Assembly: GCA_001192655.1 (NCBI GenBank)
Contig: BBVC01000079.1
Location: forward strand, 1 to 22,997
Source: Caedimonas varicaedens
GTDB lineage: Bacteria > Pseudomonadota > Alphaproteobacteria > Caedimonadales > Caedimonadaceae
Reading direction: 5' to 3'
DNA: 22,997 nt
Below are positions 7,610-22,997 of this stretch, in pieces; the stretch's first letter is position 1; each line of letters begins with the position of its first letter. The notes beneath the pieces are model-generated. The model saw nothing but the letters and a program-made list of their open reading frames with translations, was not told the DNA's origin and searched no databases. The position numbers and the translations under genes are program-made.

Positions 7610-7891
7610 ATATCAAAATCTCGTTTTTGAAACATTGTGACCAGCATTTGTAAGTCAAAATATATGTACACGAAGATTTATCTTTCTCTCTTTAGAAATG
7701 AAAAATATAATTTCTCTTAGCATCTCTGAGTATAAACTACCAGTATTTTATGAAAATTCTTCGAAATTGTATGTTTTCAAAAGTTTTGCCAATGATGAAC
7801 GTGAAAGCACTATAAAATAAACTCAACCACTACCCACTAGAAGTTGGTGGGTTGATTCGTAGACTGTAGGTCGGTATCAGTTGTTTTTTTT

Positions 7892-8441
7892 CGTCGTTTA
7901 ACAGGAGTGAAACGGCCTACTTTTGACCAGATGGTTGAAATTTTACACAGGACTCTGATGAAGAGTCCATTATGATTGATGCGACCATTATCCGTGCTCA
8001 TCCCTGTGTTGCAGGGTATGAAAAAGATCAGGGCGCTTGGGAAGACGAAGCAAGGCTGAGGTTACCACTAAAATCCATGTTGGCGTTGATGTTTTAGGAC
8101 AAGTGTTAAGATTTTCACTCGCACCTGGTCAAAGGCACGATATCATTCAGGCACCGGCTCTTCTTCAAGGTTTTGAAAATACCAATATCATTGCGGATAA
8201 AAAGTACGATTCAAATACTCTTATGGCTCAGATTCAACAACAAAAAGGTGTCCTTGTTATTTCTTCTCGTTCTAACCGAAAAATACCACGAGGGTATGAT
8301 GAGCATTTGTATAAAGAGCACCATCTCGTGGAATGTTGCTTCAATAAAATCACACACTTTAGGACAATCTTCTCACGTTTTGATAAAAAGTATCTTCCTT
8401 TACTGGATTGTTCGCTTATGCACCTTTTATCCTCTGGTTGA
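7892..8441 (+). pseudogene. Decayed IS5-family transposase remnants: a short HTH-like piece plus a frameshifted DDE C-terminal half
   Basis: 7892-7972 reads RRLTGVKRPTFDQMVEILHRTLMKSPL*, a helix-turn-helix segment typical of IS5/Harbinger-type transposases. 7975-8037 reads IDATIIRAHPCVAGYEKDQGA in one frame. It continues only after a 1-nt frame change as LGRRSKAEVTTKIHVGVDVLGQVLRFSLAPGQRHDIIQAPALL...ADKKYDSN...YKEHHLVECCFNKITHFRTIFSRFDKK. That matches the IS5-family pattern IDSTIVRAHQHAAG...GGxSTKIH...GQxHD...ADKGYDS...YKxRxxIExxFxKLKxFRRIATRYDK. Most of the N-terminal half is missing. Confidence 0.75.
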
Positions 8442-8493
8442 GGTAAGGAAACATAACCTAATTAATAACAGATTGTTATTTTGTTAGAGCAGG

Positions 8494-8821
8494 TTGAATG
8501 TCTTGCAGAGTGTAGATTTACGTCAACGGGTTGTTGATTTTATGAGAGGCGGCGGATTGAAGTCCGCGAACTCTCGTCGGTTTAAGGTCAGGACTTTGGT
8601 GTGTTTTGATTGGGTGAAGTGATGTGATTTGAGCCCTCGTAAAGTCACGTGTCATCAGCGCAAGCTGGGTTGAGAAGCCATGTTCATTCCTTTCCTGGTA
8701 CTCTTTTAAGGGAGCGGGCTCAGCATTTTCAGGTCACATTCATACCATTTGGTATGCTTTGCGCTGCATGAAACTAACCCATAAAAAACCACTCAAATAC
8801 GCGGAAAGAAACCACTGTTAA
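8494..8821 (+). pseudogene. IS630-family transposase N-terminal (HTH) remnant, multiply frameshifted and truncated
   Basis: 8494-8622 reads LNVLQSVDLRQRVVDFMRGGGLKSANSRRFKV...*. Further frames give ERAQHFQV and HTIWYALRCMKLTHKKPLKYAERNHC*. These match the conserved IS630 N-terminus (YSxDLRxRVV..., LxELAxxFxVSxxTIWxALKRxGxTxKKKTLxYxER). No DDE domain follows. Confidence 0.7.
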
Positions 8822-9033
8822 AAAGAGTACTATTAGAGACCCACCAACGCTTGAAACGGCATCTCTATAACTTGTAAAGGCTTATATTTTGCCAAGCGGC
8901 AAAGGATTAACCTCTGACAAATACGTCATAAAAGTCTGGAAAAAGGAACGGTTCATTATCAATCCTACTCATCAAACCATGGGACTATATAGCTAGGTAG
9001 CTTTTTGAAGAAGTTATATTTTGGCTGTTTTCT

Positions 9034-9108
9034 TGGTGGGCGCTACAGGGATTGAACCTGTGACCCCTACCATGTCAAGGTAGTGCTCTCCCGCTGAGCT
9101 AAGCGCCC
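9034..9108 (-). tRNA. tRNA-Val (anticodon GAC), encoded CCA end
   Basis: The reverse complement folds as a canonical cloverleaf: GGGCGCT TA GCTC AGCGGGA GAGC A CTACC TTGACAT GGTAG GGGTC ACAGG TTCAATC CCTGT AGCGCCC A CCA. All four stems are fully paired, the T-loop is TTCAATC, and the 7-nt anticodon loop has GAC at positions 34-36. Confidence 0.93.
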
Positions 9109-9202: not shown

Positions 9203-9802
9203 TTAAATCACCAGGTTTCGTCGCGCACGCAAGGCGGCACTGAGAGTGCCATCATCCAGATAATCAAGTTCGCCCCCAATAGGAACACCATGCGCAAGAG
9301 CTGTCACTTTAACTCCCGCCTCTTCCAAACGATCCACTAAATAGTGAGCGGTGGTTTGTCCATCAACAGTCGCGTTGAGAGCGAGAATAACTTCCTGGGC
9401 GCCTGTTTGTTGAAGACGTTCCAGCAACTGAGGGATTTTCAAATCTTCTGGTTGAGTTCCCTCAAGCGCAGAAAGGGTTCCTCCCAAAACATGATAACGC
9501 CCCCTGAAGCAGGCCGCTCGCTCAAGAGCCCAAAGATCCGCAACACTTTCAACCACACAAACAAGATGATGATCTCGCGACGGATCTGTACAAAGTTGAC
9601 AGGGATCGATCGTATCGTAATTTCCACATACGCGACAGGATCGGATGTGCTCTTCCACCAGTCCAAGAGCCTTGATAAGAGGACGCATCAACGTTTCCCG
9701 GTTCTTGAGCAAATGCAAGGCAGCACGCCTTCCTGAACGTGGACCCAATCCGGGCAGTTTTGCAAGGTGTTGAATGAGGATTTGAAGATCTTTACCGTAC
9801 AT
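9203..9802 (-). CDS. recR: Recombination mediator protein RecR (199 aa from the internal start)
   Basis: Recognisable elements are the HhH motif [20 protein letters not shown], the C4 zinc finger [16 protein letters not shown], the Toprim region [14 protein letters not shown] and the C-terminal [12 protein letters not shown]. The track ORF starts at 9901 and would overlap ybaB by about 100 nt. I chose the ATG at 9800-9802 ([18 protein letters not shown]), which lies 1 nt after the ybaB stop. Confidence 0.92.
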
Positions 9803-9803
9803 C

Positions 9804-10127
9804 TTAAAAAGGTAACTGCATTCCACCAGGAAGCTTGAGACCCCCTGTAATTTTTGCCATCTCTTCGGAAACGCGAGCTTCTGCTTTTGCTTTGGCATCA
9901 TTGCAGGCCGCCATTATCAAGTCCTCAAGAATGTCAATTTCTTCAAGGTTCACAAGGTTGGGATCGATTTTAATTTTCCGCATTTCGCCTTTGCAATTCA
10001 TCGTCACCGTGATCATGGAACCACCAGAATGACCCTCTACCGTCAGATTTGCTAACTCTTCTTGCATTGTGGCCATTTTAGCCTGCATTTCTTGCGCCTG
10101 TTTCATCAGTTGCCCAATATTTTTCAT
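9804..10127 (-). CDS. ybaB: Nucleoid-associated protein YbaB/EbfC (107 aa)
   Basis: The N-terminus [25 protein letters not shown]...V.G.SGGG-like...VTMNCKGE...IKIDP is the conserved YbaB signature. The gene sits in the canonical position between dnaX and recR. Confidence 0.92.
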
Positions 10128-11971: not shown

Positions 11972-12760
11972 TTATTTATGGAGCTTAGTACCCACGCAAT
12001 GAGCATTCGTTCCACTTTCAACAAACTCTTTAATATTAGCCTGTATCACAGTGCTTTCTTTTTCTTGTTCATTAGAGCCATCCATGTTTCTCATGAGGGT
12101 AATACTTAATAAATTATAAAAATTGGAAGTCACAGTGTGGTGACGATCTTTATAACTAGTATTAAGCCCGCGGACACACAATTCCTTCGTCACCGACGTA
12201 CACTCTGTCGCTTTTTTCACAAAGCGTCTTACATTTTCAGTTTTTGTCTGATAAAGAGCACTTTCTCTTTTTTTACAAATAGACTTATCAGGACGTTCAT
12301 ATTGAGCGTATTTAAAAACCGTTCCCCAAGACGTTAAAGGAACATTTTCACGTTCTTCTACTCCAGCAAGTTCCACATATGGATTTTTTTGCTCTCTACG
12401 ATAAGAACCAAGGGGTACAATATTATCTCCCAATATAACCTTGCATTGTACATCCTGCCAAGAAAAGAGGTCCTCATCCTGATGCTTCCAGGTCCTTGCG
12501 GCCACAATGACGTCAGATATTAATTTTCGTTTATCATCTCCCTGTGCACCACCGATCAGAACTTTAACGACCGAGTCGTCTTCAAAAATCTTGAAGCTCT
12601 TCTCTACGGTTGGCTGGGCAAGAAACTCTTCATCACTTAAAAGCGAAACCCTTGAAAGAACTGTAGAACCTTTGAATTCTTCCTGTTCAGAATTCGTCGC
12701 CAACACATTGGTTGTCCCTATAAACATTCCTATCAAAAATAAATACTTCATTTTAATCAT
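11972..12760 (-). CDS. Hypothetical secreted protein (262 aa), no recognisable family
   Basis: The signal peptide is MIKMKYLFLIGMFIGTTNVLA|TN. The mature part is charged and hydrophilic with six Cys residues. AT-rich intergenic regions flank the gene on both sides (216 nt upstream, 162 nt downstream) and it has its own terminator, so it is a monocistronic unit. Confidence 0.7.
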   Translation of the reverse strand: MIKMKYLFLIGMFIGTTNVLATNSEQEEFKGSTVLSRVSLLSDEEFLAQPTVEKSFKIFEDDSVVKVLIGGAQGDDKRKLISDVIVAARTWKHQDEDLFSWQDVQCKVILGDNIVPLGSYRREQKNPYVELAGVEERENVPLTSWGTVFKYAQYERPDKSICKKRESALYQTKTENVRRFVKKATECTSVTKELCVRGLNTSYKDRHHTVTSNFYNLLSITLMRNMDGSNEQEKESTVIQANIKEFVESGTNAHCVGTKLHK

Positions 12761-14778: not shown

Positions 14779-15600
14779 TTATGCGGGAGCAATTTCTTCT
14801 TTTATAACTGTAATATCAGGCGCATCAATAGACTTCATCCCAACAACATGATATCCATTATCCACATGCAGCACCTCTCCCGTAACGCCTGAAGAAAGTT
14901 CGCTCAATAAATAAAGCGCTGATCGCCCAACATCGTCCAAAGTAATATTGCGATGCAGCGGAGCATTATATTGGTTCCACTTTAAAATATAACGAAAGTC
15001 GCCAATTCCTGATGCTGCCAGTGTTTTTACAGGACCCGCTGACAACGCATTGACGCGAAGATTATGAACGCCAAGATCTGCCGCCAGATATCTAACACTT
15101 GCTTCAAGAGCAGCCTTTGCCACACCCATAACGTTATAATGGGGCATAACTTTCTCTGCTCCATAATAGGTAAGCGTCAAAAAGCTTCCCCCTGCGTTCA
15201 TAAGAGGTGCACTGTGACGACACACCGACGTAAAGGAATAACAGGAAATATCCAGTGATGTCAGAAAATTGCGACGTGATGTATCAATATATTTCCCTTT
15301 TAACTCTTCACGATCAGAAAAAGCAATGGCATGGACGACAAAATCCAGCGTTCCCCATTCTTTTTTTAAATTTTTAAAAACTTCTTCAACTTGTTCCTCT
15401 TCACCAACATCACACGGCAAGACAAGAGAAGAGCCAACAGATTGCGCCAGCGGCTCAACGCGTCGTTTTAAGGTGTCTCCTTGATAAGTAAAAGCAAGAG
15501 AGGCGCCGTGAGAAGCGAGCGTCTTGGCAATTCCCCATCCCAATGAATGGTCATTTGCCACGCCCATAATCAATCCCTTTTTCCCTGTCATCAATGACAT
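14779..15600 (-). CDS. fabI: Enoyl-[acyl-carrier-protein] reductase (NADH) FabI (273 aa), canonical copy
   Basis: The dinucleotide-binding N-terminus is [21 protein letters not shown]. The catalytic segment [24 protein letters not shown] has Tyr...Tyr-x6-Lys as in E. coli FabI ([23 protein letters not shown]). [16 protein letters not shown] is also present. A GAGGAG RBS sits 9 nt upstream. Confidence 0.92.
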   Translation of the reverse strand: [273 protein letters not shown]

Positions 15601-15714: not shown

Positions 15715-18267
15715 TCAACTCCTGTTATTAACAGCATTGAGAGAAAAACTGGATTTATAAAACCATCTCTTGCATATTTCTGCCAACAATAAATAACAAA
15801 AAACAATGACAAAAATGATGGCAAGAAAATCAAGAGGAAGCTCGGTAAAATCAAAATTCTTTCCAAGAAAGGTGAAAGGAATAATCGTGCCGATAATGAC
15901 AAGAGACAGGGTTGTGATCGTTAACAGAGGATGTGGTTTGCTTTGAAACGGAGACAATCGGGTTCTGATAATAAAAATAACCAGAGTCTGGGTTGCAAGA
16001 GATTCAATAAACCAACCTGTTTGGAACAGTTCCTTGGGAGCATGGTAGATCACAAGCATGATGTAAAAAGTGAGAAAATCAAAAATCGAGCTGACAGGTC
16101 CGAAAACGATCATAAAATTACGGATAAACTTCATGTCCCATTTACGAGGGGTCTTTACAGATTCAATATCGACATTATCCAGAGGGATGGGGATCTGGGA
16201 AAAATCATAGAGCAAATTATTAAGAAGGATTTGAGGAGGCATCATGGGAATAAAGGGCAAAAAGAGAGTAGCTCCCGCCATACTGAGCATATTACCCAAG
16301 TTTGAGCTTGTCATCATCATGATGTATTTCATAATGTTTTCAAATGTATACCTTCCCTCCACAACAGCATCATGAACAACTTCCAGATTTTCTTCCAAAA
16401 GAATAAAATCCGCTGCTTCCCTGGCCACATCAACGGCCGTATCGACAGAGATCCCCACATCCGCCATATGAAGAGAAGGAGCGTCATTAATACCGTCTCC
16501 CATAAAGCCTACGGTATGGCCATTTTGTTTTAAAAGTCCAATAATTCGATTTTTCTGGGCAGGAGTGACACGACAAAAAAGATGGTTTTTTTCAACTTGT
16601 ACCCGAAGTGCCTGATCATCCATTGCAAGAATTTGTGAACCTGTCAGGACGCCCGGCATTTCAAGTCCAAGCAGGGAGCAAAGATGCTGGGTTACATCTT
16701 CATTATCGCCAGTGATGATTTTTATATGGATCCCCTTATTCTTTAAATGTGCAAGAGCTCTTGCAGCGCTTTTCTTTGGCGGATCATAAAATGTGATAAA
16801 ACCTACAAAAGTCAGTCCTTGTTTTTCTTCCATGGCAGCTTTGATCTCTGTTGAAGAAACATGGGATTGAGCAAGAGCCAGGACACGTAAACCGTTTTGA
16901 CTCATTTCCTTGAACATTAAATGAAGTTTTTTTTCAGTTTTTTGGTCAAGATGCTGTATTTGTTGATCTTTATCTCTATAGGTTTTACTGAGTTTCAAGA
17001 TATTTTCTGGCGCACCCTTCACAATCATGCTCCGCTCTCGATCCTTTTCAAGCAGAACGGAAACACAGCGACTTTCAAAATCAAACGGGATTTCATCTAT
17101 TTTTTTCCAATAATCCGTATCAAATGTGCGGAATCCCAAAATAGATTTATCTAAAGGATTTTTAACGCCTGTCTGAAAATAGCTGTTGAGGTAGGCTAAA
17201 TTTAAAATTTCTGAATTTTTATTACCCTCACAATCAACATATCGCTCAATTTGAATATGAGCCTGTGTAAGTGTTCCTGTTTTGTCTGTACAAAGAATAT
17301 CCATGCTTCCCAGGTCGTGAATTGCAGAAAGCCTTTTGACAATGACCTTTTTTTTTGCCATACGCATAGCTCCCCGTGCTAAGGAGATAGAGACTTCCAT
17401 GGGCAGGAATTCAGGTGTCATTCCAACTGCAAGCGCAAGGGCAAATAACACGCTTTCAAGCCAAGGACGATGAAAAAAAAGATTGGCCACAAGAACGAAA
17501 AAGACTAGAAGGATTGTCAGTCTCATAATAAAAAACCCGAAATTTTTTATCCCCAGGGTAAAAGCCGTCGGGGGAGCCTGACGCTGTAAAAGGTCGGAAA
17601 TACCGCCCAGAAAAGTTGACCGTCCCGTGCGACAGATCAGGATTTGTCCATATCCGCTGACAACAGAAGTGCCCATAAAAACAGCATTACGGGCATTCCC
17701 AATATCTTCATCGGGGGCAGTAATATCGCCCTGGTATTTTTCAACAGGGAAGGTTTCTCCGGTCAGAAGCGCTTGATTAACAAATAAATCATGCGCAGAA
17801 ATAATGCGGCTATCTGCGGGGATTAAATCGCCGGCTTCTAGAAAAACAATATCTCCTGGTACAATTTGAGTGGCAGGAATCTCTTGCTTTTTTCCATCCC
17901 GAAGGACACAAACATGCAGGGCAATAGAGTGTCGTAATTTTTCAGCGGCTTTTCCGGCTCTGTATTCTTGTGTAAAATCCAGGACAACACTGATCATGAC
18001 CATACTGATGATGAGGATACAACTGCGCGATTCTCCAACAATGGCTGATAAAATAGCGGCGCTGATGAGAAGAATCACAAGCGGGTTCTTGAAACGTCCC
18101 AGAAATTGCATCAGCAATAATGCTTCTTGCCGGCTCGCAATCGTATTTAACCCGTATTTTTTTAATCGTCCGGAAATGCTGTGAGTTCTCAACCCTTCTG
18201 CACTACTTTGAAATTTTTCAAAAAGTTTTTCAAGAGGTTGTAGCCAAAACACTTTTTCTTTGGACAT
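15715..18267 (-). CDS. mgtA: Magnesium-importing P-type ATPase, MgtA/MgtB family (850 aa)
   Basis: P-type motifs are the phosphorylation site CTDKTGTLTQ, the TGE actuator LTGETFP, the hinge MGDGINDAPSL and TGDN. The MgtA-type N-terminus is GLRTHSISGRLKKYGLNTI, and the C-terminal TM layout and size fit the Mg2+ subgroup. An AGGAAA RBS is present. Confidence 0.9.
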   Translation of the reverse strand: MSKEKVFWLQPLEKLFEKFQSSAEGLRTHSISGRLKKYGLNTIASRQEALLLMQFLGRFKNPLVILLISAAILSAIVGESRSCILIISMVMISVVLDFTQEYRAGKAAEKLRHSIALHVCVLRDGKKQEIPATQIVPGDIVFLEAGDLIPADSRIISAHDLFVNQALLTGETFPVEKYQGDITAPDEDIGNARNAVFMGTSVVSGYGQILICRTGRSTFLGGISDLLQRQAPPTAFTLGIKNFGFFIMRLTILLVFFVLVANLFFHRPWLESVLFALALAVGMTPEFLPMEVSISLARGAMRMAKKKVIVKRLSAIHDLGSMDILCTDKTGTLTQAHIQIERYVDCEGNKNSEILNLAYLNSYFQTGVKNPLDKSILGFRTFDTDYWKKIDEIPFDFESRCVSVLLEKDRERSMIVKGAPENILKLSKTYRDKDQQIQHLDQKTEKKLHLMFKEMSQNGLRVLALAQSHVSSTEIKAAMEEKQGLTFVGFITFYDPPKKSAARALAHLKNKGIHIKIITGDNEDVTQHLCSLLGLEMPGVLTGSQILAMDDQALRVQVEKNHLFCRVTPAQKNRIIGLLKQNGHTVGFMGDGINDAPSLHMADVGISVDTAVDVAREAADFILLEENLEVVHDAVVEGRYTFENIMKYIMMMTSSNLGNMLSMAGATLFLPFIPMMPPQILLNNLLYDFSQIPIPLDNVDIESVKTPRKWDMKFIRNFMIVFGPVSSIFDFLTFYIMLVIYHAPKELFQTGWFIESLATQTLVIFIIRTRLSPFQSKPHPLLTITTLSLVIIGTIIPFTFLGKNFDFTELPLDFLAIIFVIVFCYLLLAEICKRWFYKSSFSLNAVNNRS

Positions 18268-18465
18268 TTATTTTTCCTGAAATTAAAAAAAGATTCTAAT
18301 GATTCTTAGTCGCATTTATCTTAAAACTTTATTAAATTTTGAAGATATTGTCTTTTAGTTTATTTCATGTTGAACTGCTTAATAGAGTACTTCAGAAAAA
18401 GATAGACTATGCTATCTTGATGTGTCGGGGAGAGATACTTCCCGGATGTAAAAACAGGGAAAAAT

Positions 18466-19608
18466 ATGAGGATCAATCATTTGTCACCTTCTTCTCACAA
18501 ACCAGATTATTCTCATCGTCGATATGGCTGTATCCCGGCACTCTGGCCAGTTTGTCTTGGTTTTGAAGCGGAAGAAAATGCTCGTCAAAACTGGGAACAT
18601 ACGCTTAATTTTATCGGCGAGGCTTATCGTATCAATCATGAGCTTTCTCCTGTCTGGACAACACAAAATCAAATTATGCTTGATCTGGACACTATGTATC
18701 TTCGGGATTTTTCAACAGGTTCACAGGGTCTTCCTGTTCTGCTGGATGCTCCTTATGCAGGGCACTCTGCAACGATTGTTGATTTTGCGCCAGGACAAAG
18801 TCTCGTTAAGGCTTTCCTTGACAATGGTCATCCACAGGTTTTTGTCACAGATTGGAAATCTGCCACAGAAGAAATGAAAGATTTTACCATTGATACTTAT
18901 CTTGAAGCATTAAATCTTGCAATTGATGAACTGGGGGGTGAGGTCGTTCTCGTAGGTCTTTGTCAGGGGGGGTGGCTATCGGCTGCTCTGGCTGCGCGCT
19001 TGCCAAAAAAAGTGAAGGCATTGGTCCTGGCAGGTGCTCCTATAGATACGCAAGCAGGAAATGGAGTCATCAAAAAACTGACCCGTGACCTTTCCATGAG
19101 TAATTATAAGGCGCTTGTCAAAAGGGGAAATGGGCGTCTTCTGGGTCAATTCATGCTTCAGGCATGGAAGGGAATGCACCCCGATCAACAATATATTGAA
19201 AAGTACATTGATCTTTTTTCGCACCTGGACGATCCGCACTATGTGAAACGGACAGAGACTTTCGCGCGCTGGTATGAATATCCCCTTGATCTTCCAGGAG
19301 CTTTTTACCTGCAGGTCGTTCAGCAATTGTTCAAGGAAAATCTGCTCGCGCGGGGAGAGTTCATAGCGCTGGGTAAAAAGATCAATCTTAAAGCAATTAC
19401 TGTCCCTACTTATTTACTTGCCGGAAAGTCCGATGATATTACGCCCCCGGAACAAGTATTGGCAGCAACACATTTGATTGGCACACCCCCTTCTCACATT
19501 GCCCAAAAAATTGTTCCAGGCGGACATATAGGACTCTTTATGGGACGCAAAAATATCCATGAAGTATGGCCAGAGATTGCAAAATGGCTTTCTGGGATGA
19601 CAGACTGA
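18466..19608 (+). CDS. PhaC/PhaZ-superfamily alpha/beta-hydrolase with a Cys nucleophile (class III PHA synthase-like / intracellular PHB depolymerase-like, 380 aa)
   Basis: The lipase-box variant VLVGLCQGGW (Cys166) matches the GxCxGG box of PHA synthases (A. vinosum PhaC: LLGICQGG). AGKSDDITPP (Asp323/324) and VPGGHIGLF (His354) lie where the PhaC/PhaZ Asp and His lie. The segment FYLQVVQQLFKENLLARGEF resembles the PHB-depolymerase C-terminal family as I recall it. No PhaE-like partner is adjacent. Confidence 0.8.
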   Translation: MRINHLSPSSHKPDYSHRRYGCIPALWPVCLGFEAEENARQNWEHTLNFIGEAYRINHELSPVWTTQNQIMLDLDTMYLRDFSTGSQGLPVLLDAPYAGHSATIVDFAPGQSLVKAFLDNGHPQVFVTDWKSATEEMKDFTIDTYLEALNLAIDELGGEVVLVGLCQGGWLSAALAARLPKKVKALVLAGAPIDTQAGNGVIKKLTRDLSMSNYKALVKRGNGRLLGQFMLQAWKGMHPDQQYIEKYIDLFSHLDDPHYVKRTETFARWYEYPLDLPGAFYLQVVQQLFKENLLARGEFIALGKKINLKAITVPTYLLAGKSDDITPPEQVLAATHLIGTPPSHIAQKIVPGGHIGLFMGRKNIHEVWPEIAKWLSGMTD

Positions 19609-19643
19609 ATTGTTCTTTATTTGAGAAAGGAGCTTTCTTATAA

Positions 19644-21068
19644 ATGGCTCAACTACAAGAGAGTATTCTCGAAAATCGTACTTTTGACGAAATTTGTGTT
19701 GGTGAAACGGCCAGCCTTTCCCGTGTTTTAACCCGTGCTGATATTGATCTTTTTGCCACTGTTTCCGGCGATATCAATCCAGCACATATTGATGCAGCCT
19801 TTGCCGAGCATGATATTTTTGGGCGAGTCATTGCTCATGGCATGTGGGGTGGTGGTTTGATTTCAGTCGTGTTGGGAACGATTCTGCCAGGTCCGGGAAC
19901 CATTTATTTATCTCAGACATTGCATTTTCATCGGCCTGTTTCCATTGGCGATATCATTACAGCAACCGTCACAGCCCGTGAAAAAAGGGAACAGCGTGCA
20001 ATCATTGTCTTTGATTGTACGTGTACAAACCAGAAAGGGGATAAAGTCATTAGCGGTACTGCAGAAGTGATTGCACCGAAGGAAAAGGCAAGTTGCCTCC
20101 GTACAGAACTTCCTGATATTCTCATTCGTCGACATGATCGATATCACGCTATTCTGGAAGCTGCCCAAAAATTGCCCAAACTGACAATGGCCATTGTTCA
20201 TCCCTGTGACGACCATGTGATCGTTGCTGCCATTGAAGCCGCAGAAGCAGGGCTGATTGACCCTATCTTTGTCGGTCCAGAAAAAGAGATTCGCGCGGCA
20301 GCAAAGGCCGCCAAACTTTCTGTTGATCCTTTTCGTCTTGAAACAACGTCTGATGCTCAGGCTTCTGCTATGCGAGCTGTTGAACTGATACAAGCAGGAA
20401 CAGCACAAGCGCTTATGAAAGGAAGCCTGCATACAGATCAGTTGATGCACGCTGTCCTCAGAGATGAGGCAGGACTTAAAACAGATCGGCGCATCAGTCA
20501 CGTTTACGCTATGGATGTACCCACTTATCCAAAACCTCTTTTAGTAACGGATGCAGCCATTAATATTGCACCAACACTTGCAGAAAAGCGTGATATTTGT
20601 CAGAACGCTATCGATCTTTTTCATTTGCTCGGCAATCTGAAGCCAAAAGTTGCTATTTTATCGGCTGTTGAGACCGTTGATCCTCATATCCCCTCTACCA
20701 TTGATGCAGCTGCATTGACGATGATGGCGAAACGGGGGCAAATTACGGGAGCTATTGTTGAAGGGCCCCTTGCCTTTGATAATGCCATTGATCCCCAGGC
20801 TGTTCGATTGAAGGGGATAAACTCAATCATTGGAGGAGAGGCTGATATCCTTGTCGTACCTAATCTTGAAGCGGGAAATATATTGGTCAAGCAGTTTCTG
20901 CACTTATCAGATGCAGATGCAGCTGGCCTGGTTCTTGGAACGAAAGTGCCGATCATTTTAACAAGCCGCTCTGATACTGTTCGGGTGCGTCTTGCCTCTG
21001 TTGCGCTAGCTGTTATTACGGCTGCCCGAAGTGGCTTCAGATTAAAATCTCCCAAACAAAAAAAATGA
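19644..21068 (+). CDS. Bifunctional MaoC-like (R)-specific enoyl-CoA hydratase / phosphate acetyl-butyryl-transferase fusion (474 aa)
   Basis: The N-terminal hotdog domain of about 150 aa carries the hydratase motif SGDINPAHIDAAFAEHDIFGRVIAHGMWG. The C-terminal PTA_PTB domain of about 300 aa contains MAIVHPCDDHVIVAAIEAAEAGLIDPIFVG, MKGSLHT, VTDAAIN, AILSAVE and PNLEAGNILVK. Confidence 0.9.
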   Translation: MAQLQESILENRTFDEICVGETASLSRVLTRADIDLFATVSGDINPAHIDAAFAEHDIFGRVIAHGMWGGGLISVVLGTILPGPGTIYLSQTLHFHRPVSIGDIITATVTAREKREQRAIIVFDCTCTNQKGDKVISGTAEVIAPKEKASCLRTELPDILIRRHDRYHAILEAAQKLPKLTMAIVHPCDDHVIVAAIEAAEAGLIDPIFVGPEKEIRAAAKAAKLSVDPFRLETTSDAQASAMRAVELIQAGTAQALMKGSLHTDQLMHAVLRDEAGLKTDRRISHVYAMDVPTYPKPLLVTDAAINIAPTLAEKRDICQNAIDLFHLLGNLKPKVAILSAVETVDPHIPSTIDAAALTMMAKRGQITGAIVEGPLAFDNAIDPQAVRLKGINSIIGGEADILVVPNLEAGNILVKQFLHLSDADAAGLVLGTKVPIILTSRSDTVRVRLASVALAVITAARSGFRLKSPKQKK

Positions 21069-22252
21069 CCAGAAACAGGATACTTACGGTTAATGTCGGC
21101 TCTTCAAGTTTAAAACTTGGACTTTATGAACCAGAAAACACGACTAACCTTCAATGTTTATCTCATGCTTCTGTTGATCTTGCAAAGTCGCCTCCAAGCT
21201 TGACTATAGATGGCAACAGAGTGCCTCTGAACGAAATTCTTTTATCATTTTCGACAACAAAATCTTCTTTAGCCTCATTGGAACAGATGGCATTGTGGAT
21301 TCTTGATCGTTTTGAGCGTTCTCAAATTGCCGCTGTTGGACATCGTATCGTTCATGGGGGAACTGATTTTAAAAGCCCCATCAGAATCACAACAGAAGTC
21401 ATCCATCATCTTGAGAAACTTATTCCTCTTGCTCCCCTGCATGAGCCAGCAAGTCTTGATTTGATCAAAACGCTAAGAGCCGCCTTACCCGATTTACCCC
21501 ATGTAGCCTGTTTCGATACGACCTTTCATACCTGTCAACCTGTCGTTGCGTCGAGGTTTGCGTTGCCGCGGGAATTTGAGCGTCAGGGTATTCGCCGCTA
21601 TGGGTTTCATGGGCTTTCTTATGAATCAATTATGAATACATTACGCAAAATAGCGCCAGAGTTGGCTGAAAAAAGACTCATTGTGGCTCACCTTGGAAGC
21701 GGCGCCAGCTTGAGCGCTATTTTCCAGGGAAAGAGCATGGATACAACCATGGGCTTTTCTGCACTAGACGGATTGCCCATGGCAACCCGATGCGGCTCTC
21801 TTGATGCCGGCGTTATTCTCTATTTGCTTCAGCAGGAAAAGATGTCTTTTTCTGAGCTTCAGGATCTGCTCTACCATCGCTCAGGATTATTGGGCGTATC
21901 CGGCATCAGTGGCGATGTCCGAACCCTTCTTGCCAGCGATACAAAAGAAGCCAAAGAAGCACTTGACCTGTTTGTTTATCGCACCGCACGCGAGATGGGC
22001 GGTCTTATAACGGCGCTTGGGGGGCTTGACGGGCTTGTTTTTACGGCAGGCATTGGCGAGCATTCTGATTGGATACGTCAGCAGGTTTGTTCTCGTTTGG
22101 CTTGGTTGGGGATTGATTTGGATATAACTTTGAATCAGTCTGATCAGCCTGGATGTATTACCATAGGGAAAAGCACTGTTCAGGTATGGGTGATCCCCAC
22201 AGATGAAGAAGGCATGATTGCTCATCATACCTATAAAATAATTTTCCTGTAA
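21065..22252 (+). CDS. Acetate/propionate/butyrate kinase family protein (ASKHA fold, 395 aa)
   Basis: Recognisable elements are the N-terminal phosphate-1 motif ILTVNVGSSSLKLGLYE, then VGHRIVHGG, ACFDTTFH, RRYGFHGLSYE, VAHLGSGASL and FTAGIGEHS. Its start overlaps the upstream stop by 4 nt (ATGA at 21065-21068). Short-chain acid specificity cannot be read from the sequence alone. Confidence 0.9.
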   Translation: MTRNRILTVNVGSSSLKLGLYEPENTTNLQCLSHASVDLAKSPPSLTIDGNRVPLNEILLSFSTTKSSLASLEQMALWILDRFERSQIAAVGHRIVHGGTDFKSPIRITTEVIHHLEKLIPLAPLHEPASLDLIKTLRAALPDLPHVACFDTTFHTCQPVVASRFALPREFERQGIRRYGFHGLSYESIMNTLRKIAPELAEKRLIVAHLGSGASLSAIFQGKSMDTTMGFSALDGLPMATRCGSLDAGVILYLLQQEKMSFSELQDLLYHRSGLLGVSGISGDVRTLLASDTKEAKEALDLFVYRTAREMGGLITALGGLDGLVFTAGIGEHSDWIRQQVCSRLAWLGIDLDITLNQSDQPGCITIGKSTVQVWVIPTDEEGMIAHHTYKIIFL

Positions 22253-22268
22253 TTAAGGAAGAAATATC

Positions 22269-22997
22269 ATGACACATCTTTGTGATCTCCGTGGAAAAAA
22301 AGGACTTATTGTGGGAGTCGCTAACAAGCAATCTATTGCTTATGGCTGCGCTAAAGTCTTGCATGCTGCCGGGGCAGAGCTTGCTATTACTTATGTCAAC
22401 ACCAAGGCGGAACCCTATGTAAGTCCACTGGCTGTAAAACTTGGTGCTCCTCTGATTCTGCCTTGCGATGTACGAGAGACAGGGCAGCTTAAAGCTGTCT
22501 TTGAAGCAATCCAGAACCATTGGGGAAAATTGGATTTTCTGGTTCATTCCATTGCCTATGCGCCTCGCGAGGATCTGCACGCGCGCGTCGTGGATTGCTC
22601 GCCCGAAGGCTTTAAAATGGCTATGGATATTACCTGTCATTCCTTTATCAGGATGGCGCGCCTTTCTGAACCGCTGATGGTTAAAGGGGGGTGTCTGATA
22701 ACAGTGACTTTCTATGGCTCTGAACGAGTGGTCAAACACTACAATTTGATGGGGCCGGTGAAGGCAGCGCTTGAAAGTTCAGTAAGGTACCTGGCTGCAG
22801 AACTTGGAGCGCAGGGTATTCGCATCCATGCCATTTCTCCCGGTCCTATCAGAACGCGCGCCGCCACAGGCATAGACCGTTTTGATGAGTTGATGGAAAA
22901 TGCTGCAGCAGAAGCTCCTCAAAAACATCTGGTAACTACAGAAGATGTTGGCAATTTATGTGCTTTCCTTGTTTCTGACAGCGCCTGTCAACATCGG
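22269..22997 (+). CDS. Second enoyl-ACP/enoyl-CoA reductase paralog, FabI-like (partial, 243 codons, runs off the window end)
   Basis: It is not in the ORF track because there is no stop in the window. The ATG at 22269 has an AAGGAAG RBS and lies 16 nt after the kinase stop. My translation is MTHLCDLRGKKGLIVGVANKQSIAYGCAKVLHAAGAELAITY...LDFLVHSIAYAP...VTFYGSERVVKHYNLMGPVKAALESSVRYLAAELG...IHAISPGPIRTRAATGI...TTEDVGNLCAFLVSDSA. It is collinear with FabI. The 193-aa antisense ORF at 22158-22739 is therefore spurious. Confidence 0.88.
   Translation, partial: MTHLCDLRGKKGLIVGVANKQSIAYGCAKVLHAAGAELAITYVNTKAEPYVSPLAVKLGAPLILPCDVRETGQLKAVFEAIQNHWGKLDFLVHSIAYAPREDLHARVVDCSPEGFKMAMDITCHSFIRMARLSEPLMVKGGCLITVTFYGSERVVKHYNLMGPVKAALESSVRYLAAELGAQGIRIHAISPGPIRTRAATGIDRFDELMENAAAEAPQKHLVTTEDVGNLCAFLVSDSACQHR

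Follow-up and report, generated by a model that had tools for sequence, protein, structure and literature searches.

Operons that place a phosphate acyltransferase, an acyl kinase, and an enoyl reductase behind a hydrolase-like gene were described in 1999 for Sinorhizobium meliloti, where orfA(DUF3141)-pta-ackA-fabI was reported to be co-transcribed and PhoB-induced by phosphate starvation (Summers, Denton and McDermott 1999, J Bacteriol 181:2217; cited in PMC8231600 and PMC5789663). Here we examine such a cluster in Caedimonas varicaedens, a Holosporales "killer" endosymbiont of Paramecium, on contig BBVC01000079.1, whose entire length of 22,997 bp is referred to as the window. Of its four genes, the first encodes a PhaC/PhaZ-superfamily hydrolase and the second a fusion of MaoC with Ptb, followed by an acyl kinase and a second FabI (FabI2), and the cluster belongs to the kind of operon already described in S. 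meliloti and Burkholderia. The reading that we tentatively favor, at slightly less than even confidence, is that the module links a pool of polyhydroxyalkanoate (PHA) and (R)-3-hydroxyacyl-coenzyme A (CoA) to ATP formation from acyl-phosphate, and that MaoC and FabI2 add a branch in which NADH is consumed.

On the S. meliloti megaplasmid, we found DUF3141-pta-ack-fabI with orthologs of genes 2-4 of the window. Both operons have a tight same-strand order of hydrolase, transferase, kinase, and FabI, and the latter three share 59%, 45%, and 59% identity with window genes 2, 3, and 4, respectively. However, the first gene of S. meliloti encodes a 738-aa DUF3141 protein with 26% identity to gene 1 (over 263 residues), and its transferase has no MaoC domain. 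The "group D1" of Burkholderia sensu lato, phaC-(phaJ::pta fusion)-ackA-fabI, was likened to the S. meliloti operon in 2021 (PMC8231600). It shares with the window a MaoC/PhaJ::Pta fusion, a kinase, and a FabI beside a PhaC-like gene, but this PhaC is long and class-I-like, not of the 380-aa family of gene 1, and the group was read as a supply for PHA synthesis without experiments (PMC8231600). The function of the described operons has been read differently by their authors, namely as acetate/acetyl-phosphate metabolism or as feeding of PHA synthesis (PMC8231600, PMC5789663). An earlier note on this DNA knew of no experimentally characterized pathway assigned to the gene combination. Likewise, our literature search, which left subscription journals mostly outside, found no experimental pathway assignment and no PHA-to-ATP reading; nevertheless, novelty was overstated there, as the operon type had been described in 1999 and again in 2021. 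New here are the use of a 380-aa subfamily as the hydrolase of the module, the occurrence in an obligate endosymbiont, the signature at the acyl carrier protein (ACP) patch of FabI, the link to a proton-translocating ATPase (H+-ATPase), and the enrichment of FNR boxes.

The first two steps proposed below have counterparts in the mobilization of polyhydroxybutyrate (PHB) by Cupriavidus necator, where the Cys-type, PhaC-like PhaZa1 yields (R)-3-hydroxybutyryl-CoA (3HB-CoA) and an (R)-hydratase, reportedly of the PhaJ type, dehydrates it to crotonyl-CoA. Thiolysis of PHB by PhaZa1 goes back to Uchino 2007 (summarized in a passage of PMC7147478). In C. necator, however, crotonyl-CoA is rehydrated to (S)-3HB-CoA and oxidized without reductase, phosphotransacylase, or kinase, the genes are unclustered, and gene 1 differs from the PhaZa1 type, with only 112 bits on the PhaZ model (TIGR01849), far under the cutoff of 300.75. 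Clostridial butyrate fermentation (crotonase, Bcd-Etf, Ptb, Buk) offers the same logic from crotonyl-CoA to butyrate and ATP together with a Ptb similar to one half of gene 2. The window differs in having an (R)-specific MaoC instead of crotonase, a FabI-type reductase instead of Bcd-Etf or the NADH-dependent Ter, and a kinase of the acetate/propionate family instead of Buk, and the hosts are respiratory Proteobacteria. Finally, low oxygen strongly induces the low-oxygen-activated (lxa) locus of Burkholderia cenocepacia, which the bacterium requires to persist under anoxia (Sass 2013, PMC3721108). There, ackA, ptb, phaB, phaC, and a cation P-type ATPase gene lie together among universal stress proteins, but the locus is a 50-gene island with a class I PhaC, no MaoC fusion or FabI was reported from it, and its role is also conjectural (PMC3721108).

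The cluster and the parts of the window used for comparison are as follows.

Gene 1, 18466-19608, plus strand: PhaC/PhaZ-superfamily alpha/beta hydrolase, 380 aa
Gene 2, 19644-21068, plus strand: MaoC::Ptb fusion, 474 aa
Hydratase half of gene 2, 19659-20093 (residues ~6-150): MaoC/PhaJ-type, (R)-specific
Transferase half of gene 2, 20127-21029 (residues ~162-462): Ptb-like
Gene 3, 21065-22252, plus strand: acyl kinase of the acetate/propionate family, 395 aa
Gene 4 (FabI2), 22269-22997, plus strand: cut by the contig end at residue 243 of ~257
Control region, 18268-18465: divergent intergenic stretch separating gene 1 from the MgtA-type ATPase gene, with inverted repeats
MgtA-type P-type ATPase gene, 15715-18267, minus strand: divergent neighbor of gene 1, given as context rather than as a proposed member of the pathway
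Housekeeping FabI (FabI1), 14779-15600, minus strand: 273 aa, comparator for gene 4

These four genes form one operon. Recomputed open reading frames (ORFs) agree with the earlier note in strand and in all three junctions, i.e. 35 nt between genes 1 and 2, -4 nt between genes 2 and 3 (ATGA, 21065-21068), and 16 nt between genes 3 and 4. The co-transcription claimed there is very likely, judging from the tight junctions and from terminator-like sites inside the cluster that are not above chance (one seen, 5.4 expected). Genes 2 and 4 each have a good Shine-Dalgarno sequence in front of them (GAAAGGAG and AAGGAAG, respectively). In a close relative, FabI2 is complete with its 257 aa and the next gene is convergent, thus the operon comprises four genes. 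The same gene set and order recur in relatives at 76-97% identity with differing flanking genes, the two longest contigs of relatives being compared through their gene tables, and orthologs of the cluster were also found in distant Proteobacteria. In GenBank, genes 1-3 are GAO98696.1-GAO98698.1, labeled poly-beta-hydroxybutyrate polymerase, phosphate acetyltransferase, and acetate kinase. In agreement with the earlier note, general annotation of the proteins in the window found no phaA, phaB, phasin, or phaE.

Enzyme families of the four genes

Judged by its sequence, gene 1 is a member of the PhaC/PhaZ superfamily of Cys hydrolases that stands outside any characterized family. The Cys-Asp-His arrangement noticed earlier (GLCQGG, SDD, GGH) is present, with Cys166 as nucleophile, Asp324 (D323/D324 of the SDD motif), and His354. 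C166, D323/D324, and H354 are unchanged in an alignment of 24 family members that are 53-76% identical, and in C. necator PhaC the catalytic Cys and Asp stand at the positions of C166 and D324. The profile comparison outlined in the earlier note confirmed the superfamily, as Pfam PHB_depo_C matches over its full length (67.1 bits, gathering threshold 27, profile positions 1-199 of 203), but placed gene 1 below the NCBIfam cutoffs both of PhaZ and of class III PhaC (TIGR01836; 139 bits, far under 365.3). Pfam DUF3141 (PF11339), the family of S. meliloti OrfA, also matches (81.9 bits, gathering threshold 29.7), covering only positions 67-319 of 582. Neither the window nor the clusters of relatives contain a phaE/phaR partner gene. 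By sequence and by fold, the nearest solved proteins are PhaC synthases: with the AlphaFold model (mean pLDDT 77, first ~60 residues disordered), the 13 best solved matches were all PHA synthases (TMq 0.58-0.71), and gastric and lysosomal lipases ranked next. Gene 1 could by its sequence either build or cleave polymer, and we infer the direction used below. The family is large, with more than 4,800 proteins at E <= 0.001, the best 120 of which are 53-97% identical to gene 1. One protein (P0090) resembling a fusion of acetate kinase and gene 1 (Acetate_kinase and PHB_depo_C) was rejected as Rosetta-stone evidence because its N-terminal half is out-of-frame and of low complexity; it is an artefact of frameshift or gene calling in which homologs of ack and gene 1, lying side by side, were merged.

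Gene 2 carries both Pfam domains, MaoC and PTA_PTB, in a single chain and matches NCBIfam PRK08190 practically end to end (704.8 bits, cutoff 282, profile positions 3-460 of 467), so that the fusion of a PhaJ/MaoC hydratase to a phosphate acyltransferase proposed earlier holds. The hydratase-2 motif SGDINPAH (residues 41-48) with its catalytic Asp and His is kept in most orthologs, and the transferase half scores 290 bits with phosphate butyryltransferase (TIGR02706) vs. 73 bits with Pta (TIGR00651). The kinase was called acetate/butyrate-type in the earlier note, of which the acetate part stands and the butyrate part does not: gene 3 matches Pfam Acetate_kinase (347 bits), PRK07058 (marginally, 486.3 bits for a cutoff of 486), and TIGR00016 (346 vs. 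293), but it reaches just 65.5 bits with butyrate kinase (TIGR02707), well under the cutoff of 289.1. The acetate pocket of Methanosarcina thermophila acetate kinase is presumably formed by Val93, Leu122, Phe179, and Pro232. Gene 3 retains the equivalents of the first three and has Ala in place of Pro232 (GFSALDG), an exchange that is frequent among cluster-linked kinases, some of which also have Ala in place of Val93. The Ala at the Pro232 position may be taken as a weak hint of a roomier pocket.

Gene 4 proved to be the divergent second FabI that had been suspected: FabI2 matches PRK07533 (407 bits, cutoff 337) and is 46% identical to the housekeeping FabI1 vs. 57-64% to the FabIs of other clusters. 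Its catalytic residues are conserved (equivalents of Y146, Y156, and K163; Tyr-x6-Lys). In Escherichia coli FabI, the acidic ACP docks at Lys201, Arg204, and Lys205 of the substrate-binding loop (work cited in PMC6916556). At these positions, FabI2 of the window has Asp, Asp, and Glu (GIDRFDEL, residues ~201-208). Asp replaces Arg204 in all 14 cluster-linked FabIs that are readable there, whereas E. coli FabI and FabI1 of the window have Arg. Such a charge reversal at the ACP patch would fit a CoA rather than an ACP substrate, and the Asp204-type signature could mark a CoA-type FabI subfamily (PRK07533) apart from housekeeping FabI. Most cluster-linked FabIs also read MGPVKAAL after the catalytic Tyr in place of MG(L/V)AKA.

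Gene neighborhoods and regulation

The linkage of these genes was examined in a spread sample of plasmid and chromid records with a MaoC::Ptb fusion, which together with the window gave 12 loci. A kinase adjoins the fusion in all 12, a PhaC-superfamily hydrolase in eight, a FabI in eight, and all three partners together in seven (Caedimonas, Sphingobium, Rhizorhabdus, Paracoccus, Aestuarium, Legionella anisa, and Caballeronia). This survey, which the earlier note had suggested, thus supports a link between fusion, kinase, PhaC-superfamily protein, and FabI. Gene order differs in three of eight full clusters with the same partners (fabI comes first in Aestuarium, Caballeronia, and the genome locus L066), phbB, encoding acetoacetyl-CoA reductase, adjoins in L. 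anisa and Sphingobium, and a phospholipase A gene follows fabI in the Sphingobium cluster. Four of the 12 loci hold fusion and kinase only, beside glycolytic or phosphoketolase genes. Across alpha-, beta-, and gammaproteobacteria, the transferases, kinases, and FabIs (genes 2-4) are orthologs that share 42-64% identity. The hydrolase slot, on the other hand, is filled by three subfamilies with 22-26% identity to one another:

Subfamily 1: the 380-aa family of gene 1 in the window
Subfamily 2: class-I-like PhaC of ~590 aa, with 505-556 bits on TIGR01838, under its cutoff
Subfamily 3: DUF3141 proteins of ~740 aa

We interpret this as non-orthologous displacement at one functional slot, and the repeated recruitment of PhaC-like proteins would be the strongest argument for a module that acts on PHA or on its CoA-bound monomers.

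A second survey took gene 1 as its anchor and covered 80 genome loci (L001-L080) by tblastn with defined queries, 59 of them with at least 3.5 kb on either side. Among these 59, the commonest neighbor was not ptb/ack but a proton-efflux (type IIIA) P-type ATPase, found in 27, in each case on the strand of gene 1 and mostly <=400 nt downstream of it (e.g. 9167-11560 in L017 and 9079-11550 in L037). In 14 loci ptb or ack adjoins gene 1, mostly as ptb-ack-gene1 without a MaoC domain and without FabI; eight loci have both ptb/ack and the H+-ATPase, and 26 have neither. The polyphosphate kinase family PPK2 was present in five and a class-I-like PhaC in four of the 80 loci. Individual loci have PPK2, a universal stress protein, or phosphoketolase as neighbors of the module, and on Burkholderia plasmids a gene-1 homolog lies in a stress island with LemA, TPM, FtsH, an MFS transporter, UbiB, a P-type ATPase, and PPK2. 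As far as gene content can tell, the gene-1 family as a whole accompanies energy-maintenance genes, and the H+-ATPase, PPK2, and universal stress protein near the module suggest a role in maintenance by which ATP would be turned into proton-motive force. With its four genes, the form in the window appears to elaborate on a core of ptb, ack, and hydrolase that is simpler. The ATPase next to gene 1 in the window was considered as the same proton pump and rejected, being of the MgtA type (type IIIB, Mg2+; 912 bits on TIGR01524, cutoff 611) and sharing no more than 30% identity with those pumps. Caedimonas relatives retain its divergent arrangement with gene 1.

An FNR/FixK-type box (TTGA-N6-TCAA) lies <=350 nt upstream in four of 26 modules compared with a background of 1.3% (P = 3e-4). 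These are L087, L093, L090, and L013, from Paracoccus, Aestuarium, Shinella, and Roseovarius. The boxes of Paracoccus and Aestuarium are perfect (TTGAT-N4-ATCAA), and those of L087 and L093 are 66 nt upstream of the PhaC-like gene and 101 nt upstream, respectively. Together with the H+-ATPase, PPK2, and universal stress protein neighbors, the boxes would be in keeping with a function when oxygen or energy is limiting. The window has no FNR box; its only candidate, a site with two mismatches 259 nt upstream within the ATPase coding region, was not counted as evidence. Its control region contains instead a near-perfect 31-bp palindrome at 18317-18347 (TATCTTAAAACTTTA-T-TAAATTTTGAAGATA) and a second inverted repeat at 18399-18418 (AAGATAG-N6-CTATCTT) that shares the AAGATA/TATCTT half-site. 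The palindrome is nearly identical in the relative L095 (82-85% overall DNA identity) between diverging flanks, and it is probably an operator, i.e. a candidate site for a regulator. No consensus sigma-70 site was found in 18268-18465 and no Rfam element or riboswitch near the cluster, the sole RNA gene being tRNA-Val (9034-9108). Elsewhere, pta-ackA is derepressed in a phaR mutant of Bradyrhizobium diazoefficiens under microoxia (PMC10888616), and in Burkholderia phymatum and Rhizobium mesoamericanum the four genes respond jointly to root exudates (PMC5789663).

Proposed pathway and competing explanations

In the route that we favor, gene 1 would swap 3-hydroxyacyl units between polymer and CoA. 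In the catabolic direction, PHA would be thiolysed to (R)-3-hydroxyacyl-CoA, which the MaoC half of gene 2 would then dehydrate to enoyl-CoA, and FabI2 would reduce enoyl-CoA to acyl-CoA with NADH, an effectively irreversible step that would fix the direction of flow. The Ptb half of gene 2 would convert acyl-CoA to acyl-phosphate, from which the kinase would release the free acid with formation of ATP. All substrates are ones that we infer; precedents exist in PhaZa1, which thiolyses PHB to 3HB-CoA, and in Ptb-Buk, which act on 3HB-CoA (review PMC7147478). Because FabI is a reductive and practically irreversible enzyme, its conservation argues for the sequence from 3-hydroxyacyl-CoA via enoyl-CoA to acyl-CoA. 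The simpler ptb-ack-gene1 core could act directly on 3HB-CoA or acetyl-CoA, and MaoC and FabI, where added to it, would provide an NADH sink. Since most ptb-ack-gene1 clusters do without MaoC and FabI, the closed route to butyrate is best seen as an add-on to this core. The module probably serves survival when respiration fails, i.e. under oxygen or energy limitation.

A far-reaching extension, which we regard as possible but rather unlikely in its entirety, would be a widespread, so far unrecognized, energy-conserving mobilization of PHA. Thiolysis followed by Ptb/Ack would yield ~1 ATP per monomer, an optional branch of MaoC and CoA-specific FabI would use the polymer as electron acceptor with butyrate as product, and the ATP would drive the co-encoded proton-pumping P-type ATPase, energizing respiratory bacteria through anoxia. 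The question bears on whether PHB is mobilized in vivo by hydrolysis or by energy-saving thiolysis, and on how obligate aerobes obtain maintenance energy from PHB without oxygen. The module is conserved across alpha-, beta-, and gammaproteobacteria and combines a PHA-type Cys enzyme with ATP formation from acyl-phosphate and a reductase that consumes NADH; it offers a concrete and genetically tractable hypothesis on both points. Annotations such as "FabI", "phosphate acetyltransferase", and "acetate kinase" in such clusters may misname the substrate. Moreover, since purifying selection maintains the module even in the reduced genome of an obligate endosymbiont, it may contribute to survival outside the host or when the host is hypoxic.

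The PHA-to-ATP route had been proposed in the earlier note; it is plausible and in part supported by the gene families, their linkage, and the FabI signature; the kinase, which is not of the butyrate family, and a FabI2 that is broken in a relative do not fit. Several further points weigh against it. To our knowledge, biochemical data for this type of cluster are limited to the Pta and Ack activities reported for S. meliloti. The phosphate-starvation induction of the operon in that species is not explained by the model. Gene 1 is equidistant from synthases and depolymerases, under both NCBIfam cutoffs, and the class-I-like PhaCs that replace it elsewhere look synthase-like, which would favor the synthetic direction. 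Gene 3 groups with acetate/propionate kinases and has kept all but one of the four residues of the acetate pocket. C4 compounds are presumed substrates of transferase and kinase, and butyrate gains no support from the family membership of the kinase. Roughly three quarters of the gene-1 loci have no ptb or ack nearby, and the rarity of MaoC and FabI in ptb-ack-gene1 clusters also counts here. In a metagenomic relative with 97% identity (L096, 9804-10010, equivalent to 22269-22476 of the window), a one-base deletion in FabI2 leads to a stop after 49 codons. Homology between L096 and the window ends at 22476, ~207 nt into FabI2, and is followed by unrelated genes (MauE, a metal-sensing repressor, and gltX). 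In this close strain FabI2 is lost or rearranged and the reductase branch is dispensable. COG5490, which we take to be the phasin family, is on the COG list of the C. varicaedens genome together with COG3243, COG4553, and COG0183. That list (supplement of PMC11724238) names PHA synthase, PHB depolymerase, and thiolase and labels COG5490 "Uncharacterized protein" (PMC11724238). Host capacity for PHA is therefore likely, with the reservation that gene 1 itself may have been counted as the PHA synthase or depolymerase COG. Lastly, Holosporales have been called strictly aerobic (PMC11724238).

Two explanations survive best beside PHA-to-ATP conversion, both of which we hold to be unlikely. One is the assimilatory direction, in which kinase and Ptb would activate external acetate, butyrate, or 3-hydroxybutyrate, MaoC would supply (R)-3-hydroxyacyl-CoA, and gene 1 would act as a PHA synthase. 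Class-I-like PhaCs with 505-556 bits on TIGR01838 occupy the slot in many clusters, the solved folds closest to the model of gene 1 are synthases, phbB adjoins in two loci, and Buk-Ptb has reportedly been used in the acid-activating direction for PHA synthesis. A review of Burkholderia from 2021 proposed essentially the same, namely that acetate feeds PHA synthesis (PMC8231600). The converse direction, from 3HB-CoA to 3-hydroxybutyrate by Ptb-Buk, is documented as well (PMC7147478). FabI is difficult to place in an assimilatory pathway, as reduction of enoyl to acyl thioesters leads away from 3-hydroxyacyl-CoA and leaves the conserved FabI without Arg204 no role. Furthermore, gene 1 has the size of class III PhaC but lacks a PhaE partner and lies far below the class III cutoff, and the context of H+-ATPase, PPK2, universal stress protein, and FNR boxes points to the making of ATP, not to its spending.

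The other explanation, to which we give the same low probability, is a plain Pta-AckA node of acetate and acetyl-phosphate (overflow, ATP, or signaling), with gene 1, MaoC, and FabI2 as co-regulated stress genes of a separate pathway. The genes of the S. meliloti operon reportedly account for the acetate kinase and phosphotransacetylase activity measured in that species, and Holosporales genomics authors take the pair as interconverting acetate and acetyl-CoA. The acetate/propionate family of the kinase, its three retained pocket residues, and the four fusion loci with kinase alone near glycolytic or phosphoketolase genes agree with such a node. It leaves unexplained, however, why transferase and hydratase are joined in one protein, why FabI and a gene of the PhaC superfamily accompany the fusion in seven to eight of 12 loci from three proteobacterial classes with an order that varies in three of eight, why three PhaC-like subfamilies were recruited to one slot, and why the FabIs of the clusters have uniformly lost the ACP-docking Arg.

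We consider it very unlikely that the cluster remodels lipids or fatty acids, with the alpha/beta hydrolase as a lipase or acyltransferase and the extra FabI joining acyl-phosphate chemistry on membrane lipids under stress. Membrane lipids of S. meliloti are remodeled under phosphate limitation, and PhoB control of its operon, the phospholipase A gene after fabI in Sphingobium, and the lipases ranking next to PhaC in the fold comparison would be in line with this. On the other hand, the nucleophile is Cys and not Ser, PHA enzymes come out best in every comparison by sequence, profile, and fold, the kinase family uses short acids, and FabI2 is devoid of the ACP-docking Arg needed for fatty-acid synthesis.

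Least probable of all is a decaying, horizontally acquired remnant without a current role in the endosymbiont, as might be read from the broken FabI2 of the 97%-identical relative, the raised G+C content of the cluster (45-47% at 19000-22000 vs. 38-43% in most other 1-kb stretches of the contig), and closest non-Holosporales homologs that are only 55-62% identical (Rhodobacterales, Sphingomonadales), since none of the four reading frames is broken in the window, the cluster is kept in relatives at 76-97% identity, and dN/dS is as low as that of a neighboring housekeeping-type gene. Against a relative with 82% nucleotide identity over the cluster, dN/dS was 0.11 for gene 1, 0.09 for gene 2, and 0.17 for gene 3, similar to the 0.11 of the neighboring ATPase gene in the same comparison, thus genes 1-3 are maintained by purifying selection. 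Higher G+C content and distant homologs would be compatible with an old horizontal acquisition.

Remaining features of the contig

Outside the cluster, the contig encodes the type II secretion/pilus proteins gspE and gspF, serC, an MFS transporter, a transposase remnant, tRNA-Val, recR, ybaB, dnaX, and sppA. The ~1.4-kb stretch 7610-9033 (ORFs 8037-8441 and 8173-8487) has no long intact gene but a DDE transposase fragment of 134 aa with a partial Pfam match, and it is probably a decayed insertion sequence beside tRNA-Val. Two ORFs on the minus strand, 11972-12760 (262 aa) and 188-823 (211 aa), have no Pfam match. The former has a hydrophobic, signal-like N-terminus and is kept in the contig of a relative, likewise without a Pfam hit; the endosymbiont may secrete it as a protein specific to its lineage. 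The recR ORF (9203-9901, minus strand) would encode 232 aa from its first ATG, 33 codons more than the 199-aa RecR of a close relative, and its true start is probably an internal ATG.

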